Shown: positions 7,521 to 16,443 of the stretch, one piece after another
Numbering within the stretch: position 1 is the stretch's first letter
Layout of the letters: each line of letters starts with the position of its first letter
DNA from: Candidatus Thorarchaeota archaeon
GTDB taxonomy: Archaea > Asgardarchaeota > Thorarchaeia > Thorarchaeales > Thorarchaeaceae
Direction of reading: 5' to 3'
NCBI GenBank assembly: GCA_016840855.1
Contig: JAEORO010000153.1
Location: forward strand, 1-28,156
DNA: 28,156 bases
The notes under the pieces: model-generated
What the model was told of the DNA's origin: nothing
Seen by the model: the letters and a program-made list of their open reading frames with translations, nothing else
Databases searched by the model: none
Made by a program: the position numbers and the translations under genes

Positions 7521-9488
7521 TTAATTATCCCATGGATCAATGAACTTACTTTCCTGAAATATTCTCTGAAACGCAGTCATCTTGTATGTCTTATAGTATC
7601 TCAGTCTTGCAGTAAATGATTGAGTAGTAATCCGATCTTTCCTATTACCTCCAGATAATTTCTCTCTGATCACACCACCAACAATGTCCGTCTTATAAGG
7701 AGGAAGTCGCAGATAAGCAACCAAGTCCAATGATTCGTCAGTGAATGCATGGACATATGGAATCTGAGAGGTCATCCAATCGATGAACGACTCCCTTAAT
7801 TCATTCTCCTTGAATCTACCCACCACAAGCATTCCTTCAGGTAACCCGCAGTACTCAAGTGCAGGTGTATATAGCAATCGCAATACCTTTTCTTCAAGCA
7901 GATTTCGAAGATAACGTCTTGCGGTCCTTGGGACAAATCCAAGTTGCTCTAGCATCCACATCCGAGTTTCACGCAACCCTCTGAACACCCACATAGGACC
8001 AAGAAGGTCAATCTGCCTGCCTGTTGGTTTTAGGTGAGGTTTTTTGTCATACTTTGTTTTTCGGAATAACCAAGAAGACGGTTTTTTACTAATCTTTATC
8101 GCGGGTTTCCATGGTTGAAGAACCCAGGCACCATTCTTCTTGTCATAGAGATTTAGTTTCATTGATATTAGCTCAGAATCAGCAACTATCTGAATTGTCT
8201 TCGGATCTAAGGTGACGGAAGGTCCCTTACTATGAGACGGTTCAAGGTGCACTGTGCACGCGTTTTGACTCGATTCGCTCAAGACCATCCTCTCAAAAAG
8301 TCCATCACTTGTTAAACCCGATTTTTTTGTTTCAGTAAATATGAAGCGATACTTGAGACCAAGTTTTGTGACAACAGGGAAATATGTTTCAGTAAGTATC
8401 AATCCAAAACGACGCAGTGTATAATGCGCCATTCTTCTTTTCGTCCCAGTCACTGTGTCAACTTCTGACGCTACAGGTCTGCCAGCTCTCTCACAAGAAG
8501 ATAGGTATTCGCAAATTCTGCGAAGTGGTTCATAATCTAGTATGTTTATGTTGCCCCTAAACATCTTCAGCATTGCTTCATGTTCTGAAGCTGCTGGTCC
8601 ATCTGGACGCAAGGCATGAATGTTCCATTGTGTCAAGGTCATCCGTTGTAAATCCATTTCATCGAGAGATACATTCCTGGCCCCTTTTCTGGCATTTATC
8701 TCGAGAGAAATTTCTGCTGCAATCTTTCGTCGAGATTTATCAACAACGCTTTTTGATGACTTTCTGCACATGCTGAGAGACCTTGCCCATTTATCGATGA
8801 TGTCAGATAGTGGGTCTTGAGGAGCAAGAGCTCTATCTATCAATGGATTTTGAATAAGAACCTCTTTGATGGTTTCTTTGATCCGGTCTATATCTTCAAG
8901 GACATCATCAACCGATCTTTCTGATACTAATGAGTTGTGAATTTCTTGAAGACCTTCCAACCGTAGCTCTTCTACCTTTGTTGACCAGAGAGGTAATAAC
9001 CATGGATTTGATTTACCAATAAAATCCGATACAATATGAATCGTGAAAAGAGCAGCAGACAGAGAATCAAGGCCTTCAGGAACGAGTGGCCAATCATAAT
9101 CCTTCGGAGCGTCTTCCAGAACAAACCTAGAGAAAACATAAGACAGTGTATCAATTTCCTGAGGATTAAGATTTGCTGGAAAGAGTGATTTAACCTGTTC
9201 TAATACATTTAAACCAGATGGTTTTAATGGTCTCATTTTTGTAGTTACTTTCTCAGTGACTTCTTCATAGCCAAGTGCCTTATTGAGAGTAGCTTCAGTA
9301 CTTGGCTCTTCAGGAATAGGTTTTAGATGGAAAGATTCCTCAAAAAGTTTCTTGTCTATTTTGGTAGTTTCGACACCCCATTTCGAGTAATCTATGAGGA
9401 GGTTTCGAAGAATGGTGAGATCTTCAACCTTACGGCCTTTTCTTAGCCAGTCTATTGTAACAAACGCTCTTTTGCCCATTTTCATCAC
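7521..9488 (-). CDS. Large protein with unknown helical N-terminus and two C-terminal Lrp/AsnC-like wHTH+RAM-like modules
   Basis: HTH-like PVASEVDTVTGTKRRMAHYTLRRF...KLGLKYRFIF and LEQLGFVPRTARRYLRNLLEEKVLRLLY...CGL resemble the Lrp HTH plus 'LGL' linker. The ORF is solid; the domain call is by eye. Confidence 0.7.
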   Translation of the reverse strand: MMKMGKRAFVTIDWLRKGRKVEDLTILRNLLIDYSKWGVETTKIDKKLFEESFHLKPIPEEPSTEATLNKALGYEEVTEKVTTKMRPLKPSGLNVLEQVKSLFPANLNPQEIDTLSYVFSRFVLEDAPKDYDWPLVPEGLDSLSAALFTIHIVSDFIGKSNPWLLPLWSTKVEELRLEGLQEIHNSLVSERSVDDVLEDIDRIKETIKEVLIQNPLIDRALAPQDPLSDIIDKWARSLSMCRKSSKSVVDKSRRKIAAEISLEINARKGARNVSLDEMDLQRMTLTQWNIHALRPDGPAASEHEAMLKMFRGNINILDYEPLRRICEYLSSCERAGRPVASEVDTVTGTKRRMAHYTLRRFGLILTETYFPVVTKLGLKYRFIFTETKKSGLTSDGLFERMVLSESSQNACTVHLEPSHSKGPSVTLDPKTIQIVADSELISMKLNLYDKKNGAWVLQPWKPAIKISKKPSSWLFRKTKYDKKPHLKPTGRQIDLLGPMWVFRGLRETRMWMLEQLGFVPRTARRYLRNLLEEKVLRLLYTPALEYCGLPEGMLVVGRFKENELRESFIDWMTSQIPYVHAFTDESLDLVAYLRLPPYKTDIVGGVIREKLSGGNRKDRITTQSFTARLRYYKTYKMTAFQRIFQESKFIDPWDN

Positions 9489-9565
9489 ATAATAGCGAAA
9501 GCTTCACTTATCATTTTAGGATACACATCTTAGGAGCTTATTAGCATAGAGCAATACAATATTTC

Positions 9566-10153
9566 ATGAGGCAAAACCAGATAATTTTAGAGTTCTCATC
9601 CGATTTGCCAGATTATTCGACTTCGGCACTCCAGGAAACACTAGCAGAGAGTCTTTGGGACACTATTAAGGATGAGTCTCTTCATATGATTCTTCGTGAG
9701 TCCGCACTTCTCGAGCTTGCTCGACGAAAGGAGCCAGGAGTTCTTGCGTACTGCGACAAGCTGATTTTATCTGAAGATGAAGAATGTTGGTTCTCAGCCC
9801 TGAAAGCTTTAGAAACTCTAAACACCTATGATGCCACCCAAAGATTGCTTGTTATCTGTGGATACTCTGGAACTAGAAACAGAAACATTGCCATGAATTC
9901 ACTGGCACGAATATTAACGTCATCTCATACTGAAGGATTTCGGAGAATTCTTCGTTCAAGTATTACTCCAGGAGTACTTGATGTCACAGGATGGTCACCA
10001 ACAGCACTTCGTGTACTAATGGCAGTGTGCATAGAACAGAACATTGAGGTGGAAACATCTATCTACTCGCTTGCGCAGTCAATCAAACGTACAGAGATTT
10101 GCAAAAAAGATTCAACCTTAGTAAGAATTCCTGAGAAGAAAAGAAAAATGTAG
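9566..10153 (+). CDS. HEAT/PBS-lyase-like repeat protein
   Basis: Helical repeats LRESALLELARR, CWFSALKALETL and NRNIAMNSLARI spaced about 31 aa apart. Confidence 0.6.
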   Translation: MRQNQIILEFSSDLPDYSTSALQETLAESLWDTIKDESLHMILRESALLELARRKEPGVLAYCDKLILSEDEECWFSALKALETLNTYDATQRLLVICGYSGTRNRNIAMNSLARILTSSHTEGFRRILRSSITPGVLDVTGWSPTALRVLMAVCIEQNIEVETSIYSLAQSIKRTEICKKDSTLVRIPEKKRKM

Positions 10154-10240
10154 TAATTAAGTGAATAATGTCCAGCGATCTGGCTGGTGCTCTCTTAATT
10201 TAATATGTTTAAAGCTAAGAAATATCAAAGTTCCTTCCTT

Positions 10241-12193
10241 CTAATGTAGGCTTACTTGTGTAAGTATTCCTGACACGTCATTATTCCAAGAACCATCATT
10301 CTGAAGAAGCCGCTGATAGAGATTATTCCTGTATCCTATATATGCTGAGATTGGTCTTGCTGTTAAATTAATCTCACATTCTTTTGCTTGGGATTGGAGT
10401 GAATTGAGCAAGTCAAATGCATCATCTTCTGGAACTCGAGATATTATAAAGCACCAAGACCCTTTGCCAGCAATCCTGACATCTGATGTCGGAGCATGCT
10501 TTAGAAACGACCTTGCCAATGAGCAAATATGATTAGATGGCCCATGGGCAGAAACACAAATCGATGTTAGTTTTTGCATGGTTGTGAGGTAGAATAACTT
10601 GAAAATTCCTTGTTTTTGAAGTGATTCGAGTGTATCTTTGATGGTCATATTATCAATCTTATAGTACCTCGAGTATCGATTATCTTCCAAGTTTACTAAA
10701 TATATTCCCCAAGAAATCATATCAAGAACTTTAGCTTGGACCGGTGATAGTTGAATTGTTTTCGTCGTATAACGAGAACCAAACTCAGTCTTAAGCTGCT
10801 GCAAACTGCGGCTATGTTCAAGCGATTTTAGAAGGATTGAAGAATTGATTCTCCACCTACCTTTTCGATTATTATATAGTGATAAATTAGCTGAGTTTGT
10901 TTCCCAATCGATTATATGAACAGATGGCAAGACTCGAGTGACTTGTTCAATAGAGGACTCTGGAAAAGCCATCAATTGTATTTGAGGTGATTTTTCAGTT
11001 CGATATCCCAATCTAGCAGAGAATTCCAGATGAAAATGAGGCCACTTATGAGCAGCCCCAACATATACAAGCGTTCTCAGACCTATGGATTCTCTTCGGA
11101 CATACCCTCTCATTGCCAAGCCTTGAGTAATCAATGCAAATCGATCGCCCCAGCTTTTCTTAGACCTCAATGCCTCTTTCTTTGTCACCGGGAGCTCTCC
11201 AATTATCTTTCCTTTCTCATTCAAGATTTCTGTTAGCTCTAACGCTCGTTTCATCCAATCAGGAAACATTTCATAGAGTTTGAGTTGTGTCAAATACCAG
11301 GGATTTTGTTCAACAGCAGCCAGAGTGGGTCTCTCTGTAACTTTCAATGAACCAGTGTCTGCTTGATTCATTATTTTAACATAAGGCGGTGGCTTTCTAT
11401 CATCTAGAAGACATTTTATATGACCAGTAACAAGAGAATTGAAGATATCAAATTCAGCATATCTTTGAATAAAATCCATAGGGTCCTCAGAGGGTATCTC
11501 TGCAGTTTCTGTCCATGCTAAAAATGCGATTATTTGCTTTCTTGCTCTTTCTGGAAAAGATGATGGAACAAGCTGCTTCAGAGTTTCACCCATCGTTTGT
11601 TTCAATGAAAGATCGGCAATATTGACTCCTTCAACCAATCTATCAATTATCGACCATAATGGTGGACCAGCGTCTAGAATTGAATACAAATCAAATTCTT
11701 TCCTGAAGGATTCCCGAATCGCATTTTGAACTATAAGGTCATGTTTCATCTCAAGAATTGTTGTTTCATATGTGTGAATCTTATAGGAGATGAAATCGCC
11801 GGGGTCATCTAGACTTATGATGGTCAGCAACTTGTGTTGAGAGTTTCTAATATCTTGCACCGCGTATAATGCTAAATTCTGCCCGTCAATCACATGTGTA
11901 ATCCACTTGTCTGAACTCTGAGGATACATACGATCAATAACAGTGCCTTTGGGGGCATAACCCATCACAACCTCTATTCTTGGCTTTAATTGAACGATTT
12001 CGTTTTGGAGAATAGGTAGCCTTGGATCAATAAAATCGTGTAATGCAAAATACACATCATTGCTTTCTTTGATTTCTTCTCCGCTTTCAAATCTTATTAT
12101 TGGACCAGAGCAGGTATACCTCAAAATCCCTATTTCTTCGTCATAATTACTTCGGTATACTTTAACGGGGAATTCGATTGAATTCTTGGTCAT
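10241..12193 (-). CDS. Large protein with C-terminal Lrp/AsnC-like wHTH+RAM-like region; probable paralogue of 7521..9488 (alternative TTG start at 12199)
   Basis: LSPVQAKVLDMI...TIKDTLESLQKQGIFKLFY is wHTH-like; shares NLSLYNNRKGRW and LYQRLLQ-type motifs with the 655-aa protein. Confidence 0.7.
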   Translation of the reverse strand: MTKNSIEFPVKVYRSNYDEEIGILRYTCSGPIIRFESGEEIKESNDVYFALHDFIDPRLPILQNEIVQLKPRIEVVMGYAPKGTVIDRMYPQSSDKWITHVIDGQNLALYAVQDIRNSQHKLLTIISLDDPGDFISYKIHTYETTILEMKHDLIVQNAIRESFRKEFDLYSILDAGPPLWSIIDRLVEGVNIADLSLKQTMGETLKQLVPSSFPERARKQIIAFLAWTETAEIPSEDPMDFIQRYAEFDIFNSLVTGHIKCLLDDRKPPPYVKIMNQADTGSLKVTERPTLAAVEQNPWYLTQLKLYEMFPDWMKRALELTEILNEKGKIIGELPVTKKEALRSKKSWGDRFALITQGLAMRGYVRRESIGLRTLVYVGAAHKWPHFHLEFSARLGYRTEKSPQIQLMAFPESSIEQVTRVLPSVHIIDWETNSANLSLYNNRKGRWRINSSILLKSLEHSRSLQQLKTEFGSRYTTKTIQLSPVQAKVLDMISWGIYLVNLEDNRYSRYYKIDNMTIKDTLESLQKQGIFKLFYLTTMQKLTSICVSAHGPSNHICSLARSFLKHAPTSDVRIAGKGSWCFIISRVPEDDAFDLLNSLQSQAKECEINLTARPISAYIGYRNNLYQRLLQNDGSWNNDVSGILTQVSLH

Positions 12194-12883
12194 GGACAAC
12201 TACACATCAATATATGAATTAATTATGACATATATTTATCATCCTTTCATCTATAATTATGAGAGATTAGTTGCCATAAATAAAAACGAGAATTTTGTCA
12301 AGATTGTCGGAGCAAAGAAAACACTTCGCTCCGACCCTGACTTAAGCTATTCCAAATACAGGTCACCAAGGCTCAATTTCTGGTTGAGTGTGAGGATCAC
12401 ATTTCAAAATAATGTAATCAAATGGTGACTCAGTAATTTTGGATGTTTCATTAATTCGGGTATTTCTGTATTTGTACATTATTTATCCCAAATACTAACA
12501 CAGTGACAATGCGTTAGTGAAACACAGCTTTTTCCTTGCTGATTCTACCAGAGATATCGGTTTCCAATATTTCAAAGACTCAATATTCCAGGAAGAATTT
12601 CTGACGTGCTTAAAAGGAAAGAGATAGTACAGAATAAGCTATATTGATTAGGAAATATGTAAATATATTTGAATGCGATTATTAGAATCGCTCGAAACCG
12701 CCATAAAATCAATTAGAGTTTTCTGAATGGATATGATAATTCCTCATCCAACCGAACCAAGGTAAACAATCAGAATAGAGCAACTACCATCAACAACCCT
12801 CAAGCAGAATAAAATGAGGATGTTAAGAGATAATTCAAATACCGCCCTTTGTACTAGGTTCCTGATAGGGTGGTGAGAAGTGC

Positions 12884-13963
12884 ATGGTCCGGATTGCTCA
12901 TATCTCTGACTCCCATCTGGGAAGCTCACTCTTCCAGTTAACAGAGAGACGAGAGGATGCTCGTCAGTGCTTCAAGAAAGCAGTAGAGATGTCCATGAAG
13001 CACTCGCCAGATATCCTTGTTCACACGGGAGACCTCTTTCATTCACATATGCCGCAGAATGATGATATGAACTTCGTAATTGAACTGTTTAAGGGACTAA
13101 AGGACAAGGTCCACCTAATTGTGCTTCAGGGCAACCATGACCAGCCTTACGGATATAGGTACAGCCTCAGCCCACTACGGGGTCTCGAGACTATGGACCT
13201 CATTACAAGTACTGGAGATGATCCTCACAGAAAATTAGCAGAAGTATATGATGGAAAAACTGTAGAGATACATCTACTATCGTGGATGCCAAGCCCTCAG
13301 TTCAATCATTACCTGAACTCAATAGAACCGAAGGAGAAACTTGCCCTCTTCTTTGCACATCATATCCATACTCCAACTGAAAATCTACCAGTACACTTCA
13401 ACTATTACGGTTGTGGGCACAAGCACAACCATTGGTTGGATGAGGAGTACGACATTGGGAGACCTGGATCAACTTGTTTTGTTGATTGGAGTAGAGAGAT
13501 GAGAGGACGTAAAAAGCTGATTATCGTTGATGTCGATAATTCGGGGAATGAATACACCGTGCAGCAACTCAACGATGTCAGAGAATTCAAGTTTCTCACA
13601 GGAGTGGACATTACAGGGATGAAACCCGAACAAGTGAATGATTCCCTCAGACACAGTCTCGATAGTCTCTCACCAAAAAAGACGAAGCCAATAATCATCA
13701 TGCAGGTGAATGGCTTGATTGACCCAGAAACTGAAAGGAGTATCAAGCGCTCTGAGATTCTTAAATATGGAGAGAAAAAACTTGATCCACTCTTCCTTCA
13801 CATCGAACCCAACTGGTCATCAGTCGCCGCAAGACCTGTGAGCCTCTCAGAACCATTGGATGTGGAGACCTCAATTCTCGAATATCTGCGCCAGACAAAG
13901 GACAAACAGGCAACACAGATTCAGAGGATTTTGCCGAAGTATTTCGGAGGTGAGATTAGATGA
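12884..13963 (+). CDS. mre11: Mre11/SbcD-family metallophosphoesterase DNA nuclease
   Basis: Phosphoesterase motifs DSHLG, GDLFH, GNHD, FAHH and GHKH, plus RPGS, a capping domain and a short C-terminal helical tail; GGTGA SD; coupled to a Rad50-like gene. Probably a paralogue rather than the housekeeping copy. Confidence 0.88.
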   Translation: MVRIAHISDSHLGSSLFQLTERREDARQCFKKAVEMSMKHSPDILVHTGDLFHSHMPQNDDMNFVIELFKGLKDKVHLIVLQGNHDQPYGYRYSLSPLRGLETMDLITSTGDDPHRKLAEVYDGKTVEIHLLSWMPSPQFNHYLNSIEPKEKLALFFAHHIHTPTENLPVHFNYYGCGHKHNHWLDEEYDIGRPGSTCFVDWSREMRGRKKLIIVDVDNSGNEYTVQQLNDVREFKFLTGVDITGMKPEQVNDSLRHSLDSLSPKKTKPIIIMQVNGLIDPETERSIKRSEILKYGEKKLDPLFLHIEPNWSSVAARPVSLSEPLDVETSILEYLRQTKDKQATQIQRILPKYFGGEIR

Positions 13964-15237
13964 TTCAACGTCTCGCACTACAGAACTATAAAGTATTCAA
14001 AGACCAGGAGTTCTTATTCGATAGAGGAACGACTGCGATAGTTGGACCGAATGGTTCTGGAAAAACATCAATATTGGAGGCATTGGAATTTGCCCTGTTT
14101 CGCGTTGTTACACGGAAAGAAAAGAAGGTCCCAAAGCTTGAGGAGCTAATAAATCATCAGAGCAAAAAAGCAAAGGTCGAGTTGGAATTTGTTGCTCCTA
14201 TTAATAGGAGAACGTACAAAGTTGTTCGTACAATTCACCCAGGTGAAACAACCGCAGAGCTGTTTCTTGTTGGTAATAAGAATCCTGAAACCAGTGGAGC
14301 TACACGTGTGGATGAACAGATTGTGGAACTTATCGGTATGGACAGACACGCTTTCTCAACCCTCACCTATGTTCGTCAGGGTGAGATAGATAGACTATCC
14401 AGAATGGCTCCAAAGGGACGTCGAATAGACCTCTACAGCATGATGGGACTTTCAGTCTATGATAAGGAGAGCACCAAAATTCAGAAAGAGATCAAAAAGA
14501 TAGATGGAGAAATCAAGAAGATTGAAGATGCCAATGAGCAACTTCAAGTCGTGAAACAATACCTTCCTGACACAGGAGAGGTTGAAACTGCTCTAAGAGA
14601 CCTTGATGAGCTGGAGCAGAGCGGGGCAGAAATTCAAAGTGTGAGAAAGGTGATTCAGAAGATTAACCAAACACTTCTGGCTATCAAATCCCAGCTTGAA
14701 TCCCCAGAACTGTCCTCGAAACATGAAGAATTAAAAGAAGTATCGGAAATCACGAAATATCTCAAATCACTCTTAGAGACAATTCCAGATGTTGCTGAAA
14801 ATCAGTTACGGCCACACATCAGGAGTGAAGCAAGGGATCTGTTCCGTGAAATCTTTGGGGACCGGTATTCGGACTTGATCATTGACGACGATTATGAGAT
14901 TGCATTATATGATTTGCAGGGGAACAGGGTCTCTTTAATGGCTGCTTCAGGAGGAGAGGATGTCTGTGTCAACTTTGCATTACGTGTCGCAGTCAATACA
15001 GCTTTACAAAAGCATTCAATCACGAGTCCTCCACCAGGCCTCATAGTCCTTGACGAACCAGGTGCAGGTTTAGATGCTCAAAGAAGGCGTTGGTTGCCGG
15101 AAGCCATATCCCGGCTTGATGTTGTAGACCAGGTGATAGTTGTCACGCACATGGAAGAAATGAGAGGTGCAACAGACCACGTCATCTCACTAACACCACA
15201 AGGAAAGGGAAGACAGCCATTGGTTGAGGTGGAGTAG
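13960..15237 (+). CDS. rad50: Miniature Rad50/SbcC-like SMC-family ABC ATPase (425 aa)
   Basis: Walker A GPNGSGKTS, Q-loop YVRQGEI, signature ASGGE, Walker B/D-loop LIVLDEPGAGLD, H-loop VTH; only about 135 aa of coiled coil; ATGA overlap with the nuclease and GGAGGTGA SD at 13946-13953. Confidence 0.88.
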   Translation: MIQRLALQNYKVFKDQEFLFDRGTTAIVGPNGSGKTSILEALEFALFRVVTRKEKKVPKLEELINHQSKKAKVELEFVAPINRRTYKVVRTIHPGETTAELFLVGNKNPETSGATRVDEQIVELIGMDRHAFSTLTYVRQGEIDRLSRMAPKGRRIDLYSMMGLSVYDKESTKIQKEIKKIDGEIKKIEDANEQLQVVKQYLPDTGEVETALRDLDELEQSGAEIQSVRKVIQKINQTLLAIKSQLESPELSSKHEELKEVSEITKYLKSLLETIPDVAENQLRPHIRSEARDLFREIFGDRYSDLIIDDDYEIALYDLQGNRVSLMAASGGEDVCVNFALRVAVNTALQKHSITSPPPGLIVLDEPGAGLDAQRRRWLPEAISRLDVVDQVIVVTHMEEMRGATDHVISLTPQGKGRQPLVEVE

Positions 15238-15240
15238 GAA

Positions 15241-16443
15241 TCAACTATCGTCAAACATAGATTGCTTTTGATCTTTGACATTCTCACTCTTCGCAATTAG
15301 ACTTCTGAGTTTGAGAGCGACCTTTCTACTCCCGATACAGATGGCACCAACAACAACATCATCCTTGAGAACAGCCTTGAAGTACTGACCAGCATCAACA
15401 TCAACCGAAACAATGCTTTCATATTCAGGAGACCCAGGATTTACGATTCCGATACTTGTCAAATCGATTCCTACGACCTGCAGTTGGTTGGATGGTGTGA
15501 TTCCACTGAATTTGGCGCTACCAAATTCCATCATATTCTGAGCTGCGATTCGAGAAGATGCTGTAGCCCATGGAATGATGCCAAACCACTGATTATTCCA
15601 TTCCATACAATCTCCTGCAGCGAAAACATTCCTTACGGAAGTTTGCATATGATCATCAACAGTTATTCCATGGTGATATTGGATGCCTGAGTTCTTAGCG
15701 ATTATAGTGTTGGATCGCACCCCAGTGGCAATCACAACCAGGTCTCCAGCAATCACGTCATTTTGCGCCGAAACAATGCCTGTTGCATTCTCATCTCCTG
15801 AAATTTCCCTACACTCAAATCCAAAAAGAACCTGAATCCCTTTCTTCTCGATTTGCTTTGTCAGGACCTTACTACCTTGATCATCCAACTGGATTGGTAG
15901 TAGTCGGTCTTCATTACTGACAACAATAGGGTCGCCACCGATTTCTTTCATCGCTGCAGCAAGTTCAATTCCAAGGATACCCCCACCGATGATGATTTCT
16001 CTTCCAGTCCCTTTCACCGCTTCACGAATATCGAGTGCGTCATCTAAAGTTCTGATAACATGGACGTTATTCCTATGAAGACCCTCAAACGGGGGAATGA
16101 ATGGACGACAACCTACAGCAATCATTATGGAATCATATGGCTCATAGTCTATAGAGGTGGATATCACAGCCATTCTTTTAGTATCGATCTGGAATACAGG
16201 TGTTGAGAGGAAAAGGTCAACATCATTCTTCTCATACCAATCAAGGTCATATCGAATGGTTTCTTTGATCGTGCGACGATTTGCGACAAGATCGATGAGG
16301 TTAGGTCGAGGATAATATGGATGACGCTCGTCCGTGAAAACATCAATCTCTATGCTCTGGTCCTTGTTTCGTACCTCTCTAATTGCAGTTGTAGCTGCAA
16401 CACCATTACCAATAATCCCAAGTCTTGTCACTGAATCACGCAC
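15241..16443 (-). CDS. NAD(P)/FAD-dependent oxidoreductase (rubredoxin reductase / NirB N-terminal-like)
   Basis: FAD-binding IIGNGVAA, NAD-binding IIGGGILGIE, ATGVR, TSVRNVFAAGDC; no NADH-oxidase-type redox Cys visible. Confidence 0.9.
   Translation of the reverse strand: MRDSVTRLGIIGNGVAATTAIREVRNKDQSIEIDVFTDERHPYYPRPNLIDLVANRRTIKETIRYDLDWYEKNDVDLFLSTPVFQIDTKRMAVISTSIDYEPYDSIMIAVGCRPFIPPFEGLHRNNVHVIRTLDDALDIREAVKGTGREIIIGGGILGIELAAAMKEIGGDPIVVSNEDRLLPIQLDDQGSKVLTKQIEKKGIQVLFGFECREISGDENATGIVSAQNDVIAGDLVVIATGVRSNTIIAKNSGIQYHHGITVDDHMQTSVRNVFAAGDCMEWNNQWFGIIPWATASSRIAAQNMMEFGSAKFSGITPSNQLQVVGIDLTSIGIVNPGSPEYESIVSVDVDAGQYFKAVLKDDVVVGAICIGSRKVALKLRSLIAKSENVKDQKQSMFDDS

Follow-up and report, generated by a model that had tools for sequence, protein, structure and literature searches.

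Does a Thorarchaeon that already encodes a hooked Rad50 carry a second, miniature Mre11-Rad50 (MR) system as well? The question is raised by a pair of overlapping genes in Candidatus Thorarchaeota archaeon (assembly GCA_016840855.1, contig JAEORO010000153.1). Positions 1-28,156 of the forward strand of this contig were studied, and "the window" below means that whole stretch of 28,156 nt. The pair comprises two + strand open reading frames (ORFs), 12884..13963 (359 amino acids, aa) and 13960..15237 (425 aa), which encode an Mre11-type nuclease paralogue and a short Rad50-type ABC ATPase. Across the domains of life, a zinc hook and long arms are regarded as the marks of a Rad50; this ATPase has neither. 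The answer developed below is that the short pair is a second MR-type system, distinct from the hooked Rad50-Mre11-HerA locus and the NurA-HerA locus of the same genome. On balance it is probably an accessory ATP-dependent nuclease of the Mre11-Rad50 type, restricted to a single Thorarchaeota family together with its sister family.

An intact nuclease gene overlaps an intact ATPase gene

The two genes are co-oriented, and direct reading of the sequence places the start codon of the Rad50-type gene on the stop codon of the Mre11-type gene in an ATGA overlap (13960..13963, + strand). Both proteins are intact, and every catalytic motif in them is under purifying selection.

The upstream product (12884..13963) has a phosphoesterase domain and a predicted cap domain and C-terminal helix-loop-helix. 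Pfam identifies it as a phosphoesterase of the calcineurin-like kind (Metallophos, E 1.7e-10, above cut-off), and its top PDB profile match is Methanocaldococcus jannaschii Mre11 (3auz/3av0, E 5e-32). Scores against curated NCBIfam models are 95 bits for Mre11_Sulfo (cut-off 500), aligned across residues 4-338 of 359, 54 bits for TIGR00619 (cut-off 77.65), and 22-54 bits for the SbcD models. The AlphaFold2 (AF2) model has a predicted local distance difference test score (pLDDT) of 90.0, with a beta-rich region at 211-313 and helices at 327-338 and 343-353, which would fit a cap and a helix-loop-helix.

The protein contains phosphoesterase motifs I to V, all encoded on the + strand: motif I, aa 7-11 with D9 and H11 (12902..12916); motif II, HTGDLF, aa 47-52 (13022..13039), with H47, T48, G49, D50 and F52 invariant; motif III, GNHD, aa 83-86 (13130..13141), with G83, N84, H85 and D86 invariant; the motif IV histidine, H159 (13358..13360); and motif V, GHKH, aa 178-181 (13415..13426), with G178, H179 and H181 invariant. 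Invariance refers to 12/12 aligned orthologues, whose identity goes down to 28%. Since D9, H11, D50, N84, H85, H159, H179 and H181, which include the metal-binding and catalytic residues, are unchanged throughout this set, a selected activity is indicated, that is, a nuclease retained by selection. The predicted helix-loop-helix (aa 327-353; 13862..13942, + strand) is likely to be a Rad50-binding domain, as it has the position of the Rad50-binding helix-loop-helix in archaeal MR (structures 3av0 and 3qku).

The downstream product (13960..15237) matches SMC_N, AAA_23 and SbcC_Walker_B in Pfam. Five NCBIfam Rad50 equivalogs match it at 138-158 bits (cut-offs 700-1087; the best is 158 against 1000), in two stretches that correspond to both head halves only. 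Rad50 structures 5f3w and 3aux head the PDB profile search (E 7e-56). In Foldseek the top matches to its model are M. jannaschii Rad50 head constructs (3auy_A, E 3.7e-24, TM-scores 0.69/0.79; also 5dny and 3av0), followed by Pyrococcus furiosus, Escherichia coli SbcC and eukaryotic Rad50. For the pair as a whole, the best fold and sequence matches are the Rad50 and Mre11 proteins of M. jannaschii, P. furiosus and Thermotoga maritima. The AF2 model, built from an alignment of 20 short Rad50s that are 37-81% identical to the window copy, has a pLDDT of 90.3 and a predicted template modelling score (pTM) of 0.78.

All ABC motifs, named here by our own assignment, are invariant in 20/20 of these sequences. 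They are, on the + strand, Walker A (GPNGSGKTS, aa 29-37, 14044..14070; G29, N31, G32, G34 and K35 invariant), the Q-loop glutamine Q140 within YVRQGEI (14377..14379; Y137-G141 invariant), the signature SGGED (aa 330-334, 14947..14961; S330-D334 invariant), Walker B with the D-loop (LIVLDEPGAGLD, aa 361-372, 15040..15075; D365, E366, P367, G368, G370, L371 and D372 invariant) and the H-loop histidine H397 (15148..15150). Mean column identity in the two head lobes is 0.72 and 0.80. A first-pass annotation, made from the window alone, had described an intact Mre11-type nuclease ATGA-coupled to a 425-aa Rad50-type ATPase with a complete ABC motif set, including a variant signature (ASGGE, within SGGED) and D-loop (EPGAGLD, within DEPGAGLD). 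The ORFs, the directly read overlap and the alignment bear this description out.

The arm is short and has no hook

Where a canonical Rad50 has its long coiled coil, the window protein has a helical arm confined to aa 165-299 (14452..14856, + strand), as delimited by AF2 secondary structure. The sole cysteine of the protein, C336, is in the head, and the arm is Cys-free. The annotation had placed the arm at these same residues and had argued from the single cysteine that there is no CXXC hook; the model and the cysteine count agree with it on both points.

The model gives arm helices at 165-201, 205-220, 226-246 and 253-299, with a variable tip loop at 221-225. Two conserved breaks, LP202-203 and SPEL248-251, lie opposite each other when counted from the tip, and P203 and P276 are invariant; breaks paired in this way are what an antiparallel coiled coil with a single joint would show. 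Conservation is uneven. The base of the descending helix (aa 276-299; 14785..14856, + strand) has a mean column identity of 0.75, the remaining arm 0.43-0.54 and the tip helices 0.43, and the tip loop falls to 0.29 and is the site of the only indel in the arm. The base is thus as conserved as the heads, which fits docking of Mre11 there, and it is likely, as a putative site, to receive the helix-loop-helix of the nuclease. The variable, Cys-free tip speaks against a specific tip-to-tip interface, and the earlier suggestion that the arms dimerize tip to tip finds no support in this least conserved part of the arm. A complex prediction with two copies of aa 158-306 scored 0.18, the mark being 0.42, and counts neither way.

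The short form is genuine and conserved

Could the short arm have arisen by assembly collapse of a full-length rad50, or by a deletion peculiar to this strain? Both are ruled out by the uniform length of the relatives, by independent contigs, and by the lack of any close hooked homologue. Among 5.8 billion clustered proteins, the 120 relatives listed at 59-100% identity are all 388-446 aa long (117 of them at least 415 aa), none has a CxxC in aa 151-310 (0/120), and those with a named source are mostly Candidatus Thorarchaeota. Three close relatives (P0005, P0045 and P0113; 61-79% identity) have source labels that read Promethearchaeota, Odinarchaeota or Hermodarchaeota, not Thorarchaeota. When 1.84 billion representatives were scanned with HMMER without filters, the short family appeared as fragments and three full-length members (432, 433 and 443 aa). 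Every match above 35% identity was a short form or a fragment, matches outside the family reached at most 37% and covered heads only, and no close long or hooked homologue was present among these representatives.

At the DNA level, Logan contigs from two runs of other studies contain 13318-14808 as a single piece of 1491 bases that shows 0 differences, and an additional contig spans 14784-15180, with neither indels nor joints seen. These independent contigs bridge the arm, which excludes collapse across it, and the short arm is kept in homologues; both points answer checks that the annotation had proposed. The pair is conserved across many genomes at 37-92% identity and constant length, with near-full-length copies of the ATPase gene in 38 family genomes as open frames of 401-497 aa.

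The same genome has a hooked MR elsewhere

Is the short pair the organism's only MR? The genome (3.36 Mb, 259 contigs, 92% complete) shows that it is not. Contig C243 has, as consecutive genes, a HerA-like ATPase (591-aa frame), a 436-aa Mre11 and an overlapping 692-aa Rad50 with a central CPTC; the Mre11-Rad50 pair is at C243:46422-49807 (L005:194-3579). Contig C236 has NurA followed by HerA. The reading of the short pair as the sole MR was rejected on this divergent pair, found by a Rad50 family search and ORF reading; a search with the window Mre11 recovered only itself in the genome and missed the canonical 436-aa Mre11. The annotation's proposal of a second MR complex is thereby confirmed. 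It had also advised looking for a full-length rad50-mre11-herA-nurA locus, and this exists in part: a HerA-like gene, mre11 and rad50 stand together on C243, but NurA is elsewhere, on C236.

The resection genes of this genome are split, with NurA and HerA at C236:36102-38138 and a second HerA-like gene at C243:45092-45814, beside Mre11-Rad50. Genome-wide there are eight DUF87/HerA-type matches, on C236, C243 and other contigs. At 692 aa the canonical Rad50 is also a short one by archaeal standards, and it is very divergent: no other Rad50 row in the head tree has an end branch as long as its 3.56.

A hooked Rad50 is general in the family: it was found in 84/86 family genomes (E <= 1e-30) and in 23/23 high-quality ones, the two misses being 62% and 80% complete.

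The nearest relatives have a hydrophobic stretch in place of a hook

Of the top 150 representative matches to the short ATPase, 142 are at least 550 aa long, and a central CxxC is present in 140/142. P0127 and P0128, the two without it, are the best-scoring long matches among the 150 (E 6e-45 and 7e-43). Each has an uninterrupted hydrophobic stretch of ~37 residues at the center of the arm, which looks like a transmembrane (TM) hairpin. With P0271 and the proteins of two metagenome loci (L123 and L124) they form a clade of 596-679 aa proteins with no CxxC, known from a few metagenome contigs only. A scan of species genomes gave no close relative of P0128, only hooked Rad50s at ~25-36% identity. 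Among the first 45 representative matches, SGGED is found as the signature only in the short and TM forms, which alone share the D in its fifth place. In each of the two metagenome loci (L123:6855-9824 and L124:2-2805) an Mre11-like gene, with a motif III that reads GTHD, is directly upstream; together the two would make an MR-like pair anchored in the membrane. The L123 pair is preceded by a gene for a 924-aa Eco57I/MmeI-type methylase.

Both subunits of the short pair are closer to this pair than to the canonical pair in their own genome. The Rad50 heads are 37% and 32% identical to those of the TM form (E 5e-35) and the Mre11 proteins 28% (E 2e-26), as against E 1e-10 for Rad50 and E 2e-6 for Mre11 when the resident canonical pair is the comparison. 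The short pair did not, therefore, arise by recent duplication of the resident MR.

Trees were built from heads only. A quick tree (75 rows, with an SMC outgroup) gave Shimodaira-Hasegawa-like approximate likelihood ratio test (SH-aLRT) values of 97 for the short family, 99 for the TM forms and 96 for short plus TM forms apart from hooked Rad50s. In a careful tree of 40 rows, which left out long branches and included 26 hooked Rad50s, support was 100/98 for the short family, 100/99 for the TM forms and 83/90 for the two together apart from the hooked Rad50s (82% of bootstrap trees). That the short and TM forms are sister clades is moderately supported. Judged from these sequences, the short pair belongs to a separate, co-diverged, hook-less MR lineage.

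The pair is inherited at a fixed site and repeatedly lost

We surveyed 301 genomes sampled across the phylum (E <= 1e-20). Short Rad50 was present in 43/77 genomes of the window's family (42/76 without the window's own). Of these matches, 38 are close to full length; a contig end truncates three more, and the last two are remnants. The single genome of the sister family also has it, at 38% identity. No short form was seen in other families among the genomes searched; six genomes of other families gave N-lobe matches only (27-37% identity), of which five belong to ordinary long Rad50s in open frames of 727-965 aa and the sixth is in a frame of 231 aa. Within the window's family some genera lack it altogether (0/3, 0/5 and 0/4), and it is patchy within others (15/24 and 6/14).

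Where present, the ATPase gene has its partner beside it. The Mre11 paralogue is directly upstream in 27 of the 29 loci fetched and the remaining two end there at a contig edge, giving adjacency in 27/27 loci for which DNA is available. Twelve neighborhoods of 12-20 kb show the same flanking genes over several genera, and the pair is ~44-77% identical among them, similar to its neighbors. A fixed syntenic site and neighbor-like divergence argue for vertical inheritance at that site, not island hopping.

Five complete-looking genomes without the pair were checked for loss. Two were uninformative (one contig end, one rearrangement). In the other three (G103, G046 and G027) the syntenic site has closed up without the pair, with differing deletion boundaries; in G103, which is of the same genus and 97% complete, only ~145 bp separate the flanking genes. 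Two further genomes keep remnants. In G143 (L173, G143:C26, 4372-5140) there is a frameshifted 3' part of Rad50 with stops and Mre11 is lost, and in G254 (L174, G254:C87, 4458-4631) only the last 58 codons remain, at 100% identity, beside neighbors that are 88-94% identical to the window's. Because clean deletions and remnants occur in relatives that keep the hooked MR, the pair is dispensable: it is an accessory system, repeatedly lost while the hooked MR is retained.

Surroundings of the pair

Across the family the neighbors are two transcription factor B (TFB) genes, a CAAX protease, a GH3-like enzyme, a HAD hydrolase, a rubredoxin-reductase-like oxidoreductase, an ABC transporter, an ATP-grasp enzyme and an SIS protein. 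Pfam and neighborhood annotation found no other defense or mobile genes at the family site. In the window the TFIIB/TFB paralogues (317 and 329 aa) are in tandem at 82-2097. Pfam searches of all larger ORFs found no herA or nurA in the window, in keeping with the annotation's remark that neither is adjacent, and the arrangement is not that of the HerA-NurA-Mre11-Rad50 operon, in which both genes adjoin. Rfam and tRNA scans of the window found no Rfam families or tRNAs.

The Mre11 paralogue gene is preceded by ~680 bp (12200-12883) that are non-coding, AT-rich and unusually long. A promoter and terminator scan of 12200-15500, whose coverage does not extend to archaeal promoters, found sites no more numerous than in shuffled sequences. 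For 12600-15400 no RNA data set was listed as holding the sequence, which counts neither for nor against expression.

In the window's lineage the block 7521-12199 is an insertion that separates the pair from its conserved neighbors. It encodes two ~650-aa proteins on the - strand (7521-9488 and 10241-12199), with no Pfam or PADLOC match and no likeness to each other by BLASTP, and a 195-aa protein on the + strand (9566-10153) in no Pfam or PADLOC family. For the ~650-aa proteins Atlas gave sub-threshold leads only (best 0.81); these point to hypothetical clusters from archaea, of which some have HTH_24. Homologues of the insertion occur in a few close relatives only (L056, L059, L060 and L174). 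The ~650-aa proteins were considered as members of the system and dropped, since they are absent beside the pair in most other genera.

The sister-family genome holds the pair in a different neighborhood (L051, G112:C50, 6222-13477), with a lone Cas6 two genes from the pair, a 598-aa PIN-domain gene divergent from it and a KaiC-like ATPase nearby. No CRISPR array was found in the 18 kb of this locus.

Comparison with known systems

How far does the pair resemble systems already described? Archaeal MR (M. jannaschii 3av0/5dny/5f3w; P. furiosus 3qku) supplies the top sequence and fold matches for both subunits and shares the gene order, the gene overlap, the full ATPase and nuclease motifs and the predicted C-terminal helix-loop-helix of Mre11. 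The short pair differs in that its arm is ~135 aa instead of several hundred and ends in a variable tip without a CxxC hook, that it has no adjacent herA or nurA, that it falls far below the equivalog cut-offs, that it coexists with a hooked Rad50, and that its ATPase groups with a hook-less clade apart from the 26 hooked Rad50s (83/90). Of the features that define Rad50, the ATPase has the bipartite ABC head; the hook, the long coiled coil and an equivalog-level NCBIfam score are lacking. The 359-aa protein has the phosphoesterase motifs of Mre11/SbcD and likewise scores below the NCBIfam equivalogs.

Laboratory truncated MR heads such as P. furiosus MR-NBD combine, like the short protein, a head with a short coiled coil that keeps the putative Mre11 site, and the top Foldseek matches are such constructs. 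Here, however, the truncated form is natural and conserved across a family, and what closes it is a loop with two additional short helices, not an artificial linker. An excerpt of the report on a coiled-coil-truncated P. furiosus MR construct says that its activity was checked so as to be sure that the complex was active (PMC8824468).

Bacterial SbcCD is also a two-gene ATPase-nuclease operon without HerA or NurA, and its head complex is a fold match (7yzp, E 2.5e-19). SbcC, which carries a zinc hook, is 1048 aa long. The short ATPase scores 110 bits against TIGR00618 (cut-off 478); membership in SbcC was rejected on this score. The TM-hairpin proteins are the nearest kin of both subunits and have SGGED, no CxxC and an Mre11-like gene directly upstream, but differ in their length of 596-679 aa, their ~37-residue hydrophobic hairpin and the GTHD of their partner.

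An ABC/SMC-type head with a short helical insert is also found in the defense proteins MAD3 of the MADS MAD3-MAD4 module, Gabija GajA, PARIS AriA, Septu PtuA and Lamassu LmuB. In contrast to these OLD/ABC-ATPase modules, the short ATPase is partnered by an Mre11 phosphoesterase in place of a Toprim/OLD, HNH or LmuA effector, there are no methylase or system genes near the short pair, and PDB and NCBIfam rank Rad50 first. PADLOC ranks mad3 first for the ATPase (E 3.7e-39, matched along its entire length), and the Mre11 paralogue has two weak rows (16-19 bits). MAD3 is described, in an excerpt of PMC13662399, as the ATPase of an OLD-related MAD3-MAD4 nuclease module in MADS. Membership in MADS was rejected in spite of the mad3 match, as there is neither a MAD4 OLD/Toprim-type partner nor a nearby methylase. 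Lamassu consists of an SMC-like LmuB, an LmuA effector and LmuC; the LmuB profile matches the ATPase at 79 bits in two stretches and there is no effector-like neighbor, and this assignment was rejected too. So was RecN/RecF (NCBIfam recN 43 bits against 408, recF 58 against 172). The comparison with LmuB and RecN drawn in the annotation thus holds at the level of superfamily likeness and, by NCBIfam and PADLOC scores, goes no further.

Archaeal SMC-related proteins (ASRP/ClsN/Sph) and arcadin-4 are likewise archaeal paralogues of the SMC superfamily. The short ATPase differs from both in scoring 55 bits against 300 for ASRP and 92 against 860 for Rkd4 (NCBIfam), and both assignments were rejected on these curated scores. 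Most ASRPs carry a zinc hook; the parts available of a survey of these proteins describe hook-bearing ASRPs only and mention no Mre11 partner, the word "Mre11" occurring 0 times in the main text (PMC9389158). Excerpts of two Asgard-related reviews mention conserved Mre11 and Rad50 only. In the literature searched, supplements and subscription journals aside, we found no description of a naturally hook-less short Rad50 with an Mre11 partner or of this family, so that the first-pass view of an undescribed system holds within that literature. The parts, Mre11 and a Rad50-type head, are known; what appears to be new is a lineage of their own without hook and long arm.

What might the pair do?

By homology with archaeal MR the two proteins would form an M2R2 complex. 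A dimer of the Mre11 paralogue would dock through its C-terminal helix-loop-helix onto the conserved arm base of Rad50, the Rad50 heads would engage on binding ATP with DNA held between them, and ATP hydrolysis would position Mre11 for cutting. With only ~55 residues per strand and a non-conserved, Cys-free tip, the two arms would be joined at the apex neither covalently nor by a metal. The complex would resemble the coiled-coil-truncated head modules and would lack the hook-closed ring and long-range tethering. In SbcCD and MRN, according to an excerpt of PMC12446458, apically joined arms form a ring that allows a stable clamp at a free DNA end but none on DNA that is internal or circular. 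With no hook and an unconserved tip, this topological end gate and long-range tethering are probably absent from the short pair. Laboratory MR constructs with truncated arms serve as active enzymes (PMC8824468), which suggests that a head-only MR is a workable nuclease. For the role of the pair we favor supplementary DNA processing (of ends, hairpins or blocked termini) that would overlap with that of the canonical MR; this is favored on the vertical, syntenic setting among housekeeping genes, the neighbor-like divergence, and the fact that the pair was lost repeatedly from relatives in which the hooked MR stayed.

Several points weigh against reading the pair as an accessory MR-type nuclease with such a role. 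Complex formation, stoichiometry, ATPase activity and nuclease activity are inferred from homology. The scores far below the equivalog cut-offs (95 against 500 bits and 158 against 1000) mean that orthology to Mre11 and Rad50 is not established. The arm may be either a kinked coiled coil that extends outward or a four-helix stub that is folded, and an unrecognized protein contact between arms, or a third partner, is conceivable. Frequent loss could equally fit a conditionally useful function, for example a defensive one. Finally, the membrane hairpin of the nearest clade, with its one restriction-modification-like neighbor, hints that the lineage is perhaps not one of classical repair. A bolder idea, which we hold to be possible but doubtful, is that the pair would be one branch of a hook-less, gate-less MR lineage, the other branch having the membrane hairpin, and that it could load on internal, circular or membrane-proximal DNA and act as a nuclease on foreign or aberrant DNA and not in break repair.

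Is the pair then a defense nuclease, as the annotation suggested? A hook-less MR might load on non-end or circular foreign DNA, viral termini or hairpins and so destroy invading viruses or plasmids. The accessory, patchy distribution with repeated loss would suit this, as would the whole-length mad3 match, the methylase directly upstream of one of the two TM-hairpin pairs, the Cas6 and PIN-domain genes near the pair in the sister family, and the gain of the 7521-12199 insertion at the same site. The mad3 likeness is, however, a likeness of ABC heads, with neither the MAD4 OLD-type partner nor a methylase to go with it, and the nuclease subunit has only its two weak PADLOC rows. The pair occupies a single fixed site in the family, among housekeeping genes and away from other defense or mobile genes, and its synteny and neighbor-like divergence speak for vertical descent; the sister-family locus has no CRISPR array. 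No close relative was found on viral contigs (searched with two peptide patterns) or in phage and plasmid collections (tblastn). We regard defense as unlikely, and the suggestion gains no support from the housekeeping setting, the weak nuclease rows or the viral, phage and plasmid searches.

Very unlikely, in our view, is a RecF- or RecN-like DNA-binding or loader ATPase that does not cut, with the Mre11 paralogue mainly a scaffold. The size, the head with a short helical insert and the scores of 58 bits for recF and 43 bits for recN recall such proteins, and dispensability would be compatible with the idea; but the metal-binding and catalytic residues of the nuclease are invariant in all 12 orthologues, down to 28% identity, both scores fall well short of the cut-offs of 172 and 408, and Rad50 is the best match. 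That the ATPase gene is a collapsed, internally deleted or decaying full-length rad50 hardly deserves credence: two relatives have decayed remnants, but the window copy is intact, the 38 near-full-length family copies and 120 listed clusters keep the short length, independent contigs match the arm without an indel, and the 1.84 billion representatives hold no close long or hooked homologue.

Implications

If the pair is the accessory MR-type nuclease that we consider it on balance to be, the Thorarchaeota family offers a natural test of the end-gate model, in which closure of the arms at the apex distinguishes free DNA ends from intact DNA (PMC12446458). What it offers is a half-length, hook-less Rad50 with all its motifs and a dedicated Mre11, kept across an archaeal family. 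At 359 and 425 aa the pair is also a small and tractable structural target, and it points to a sister clade with what would be a membrane-anchored arm. Should the short pair cut DNA ends only, the gate would be unnecessary for end recognition; should it cut internal or circular DNA, the gate model would be strongly supported and a new class of MR substrate would have been found.

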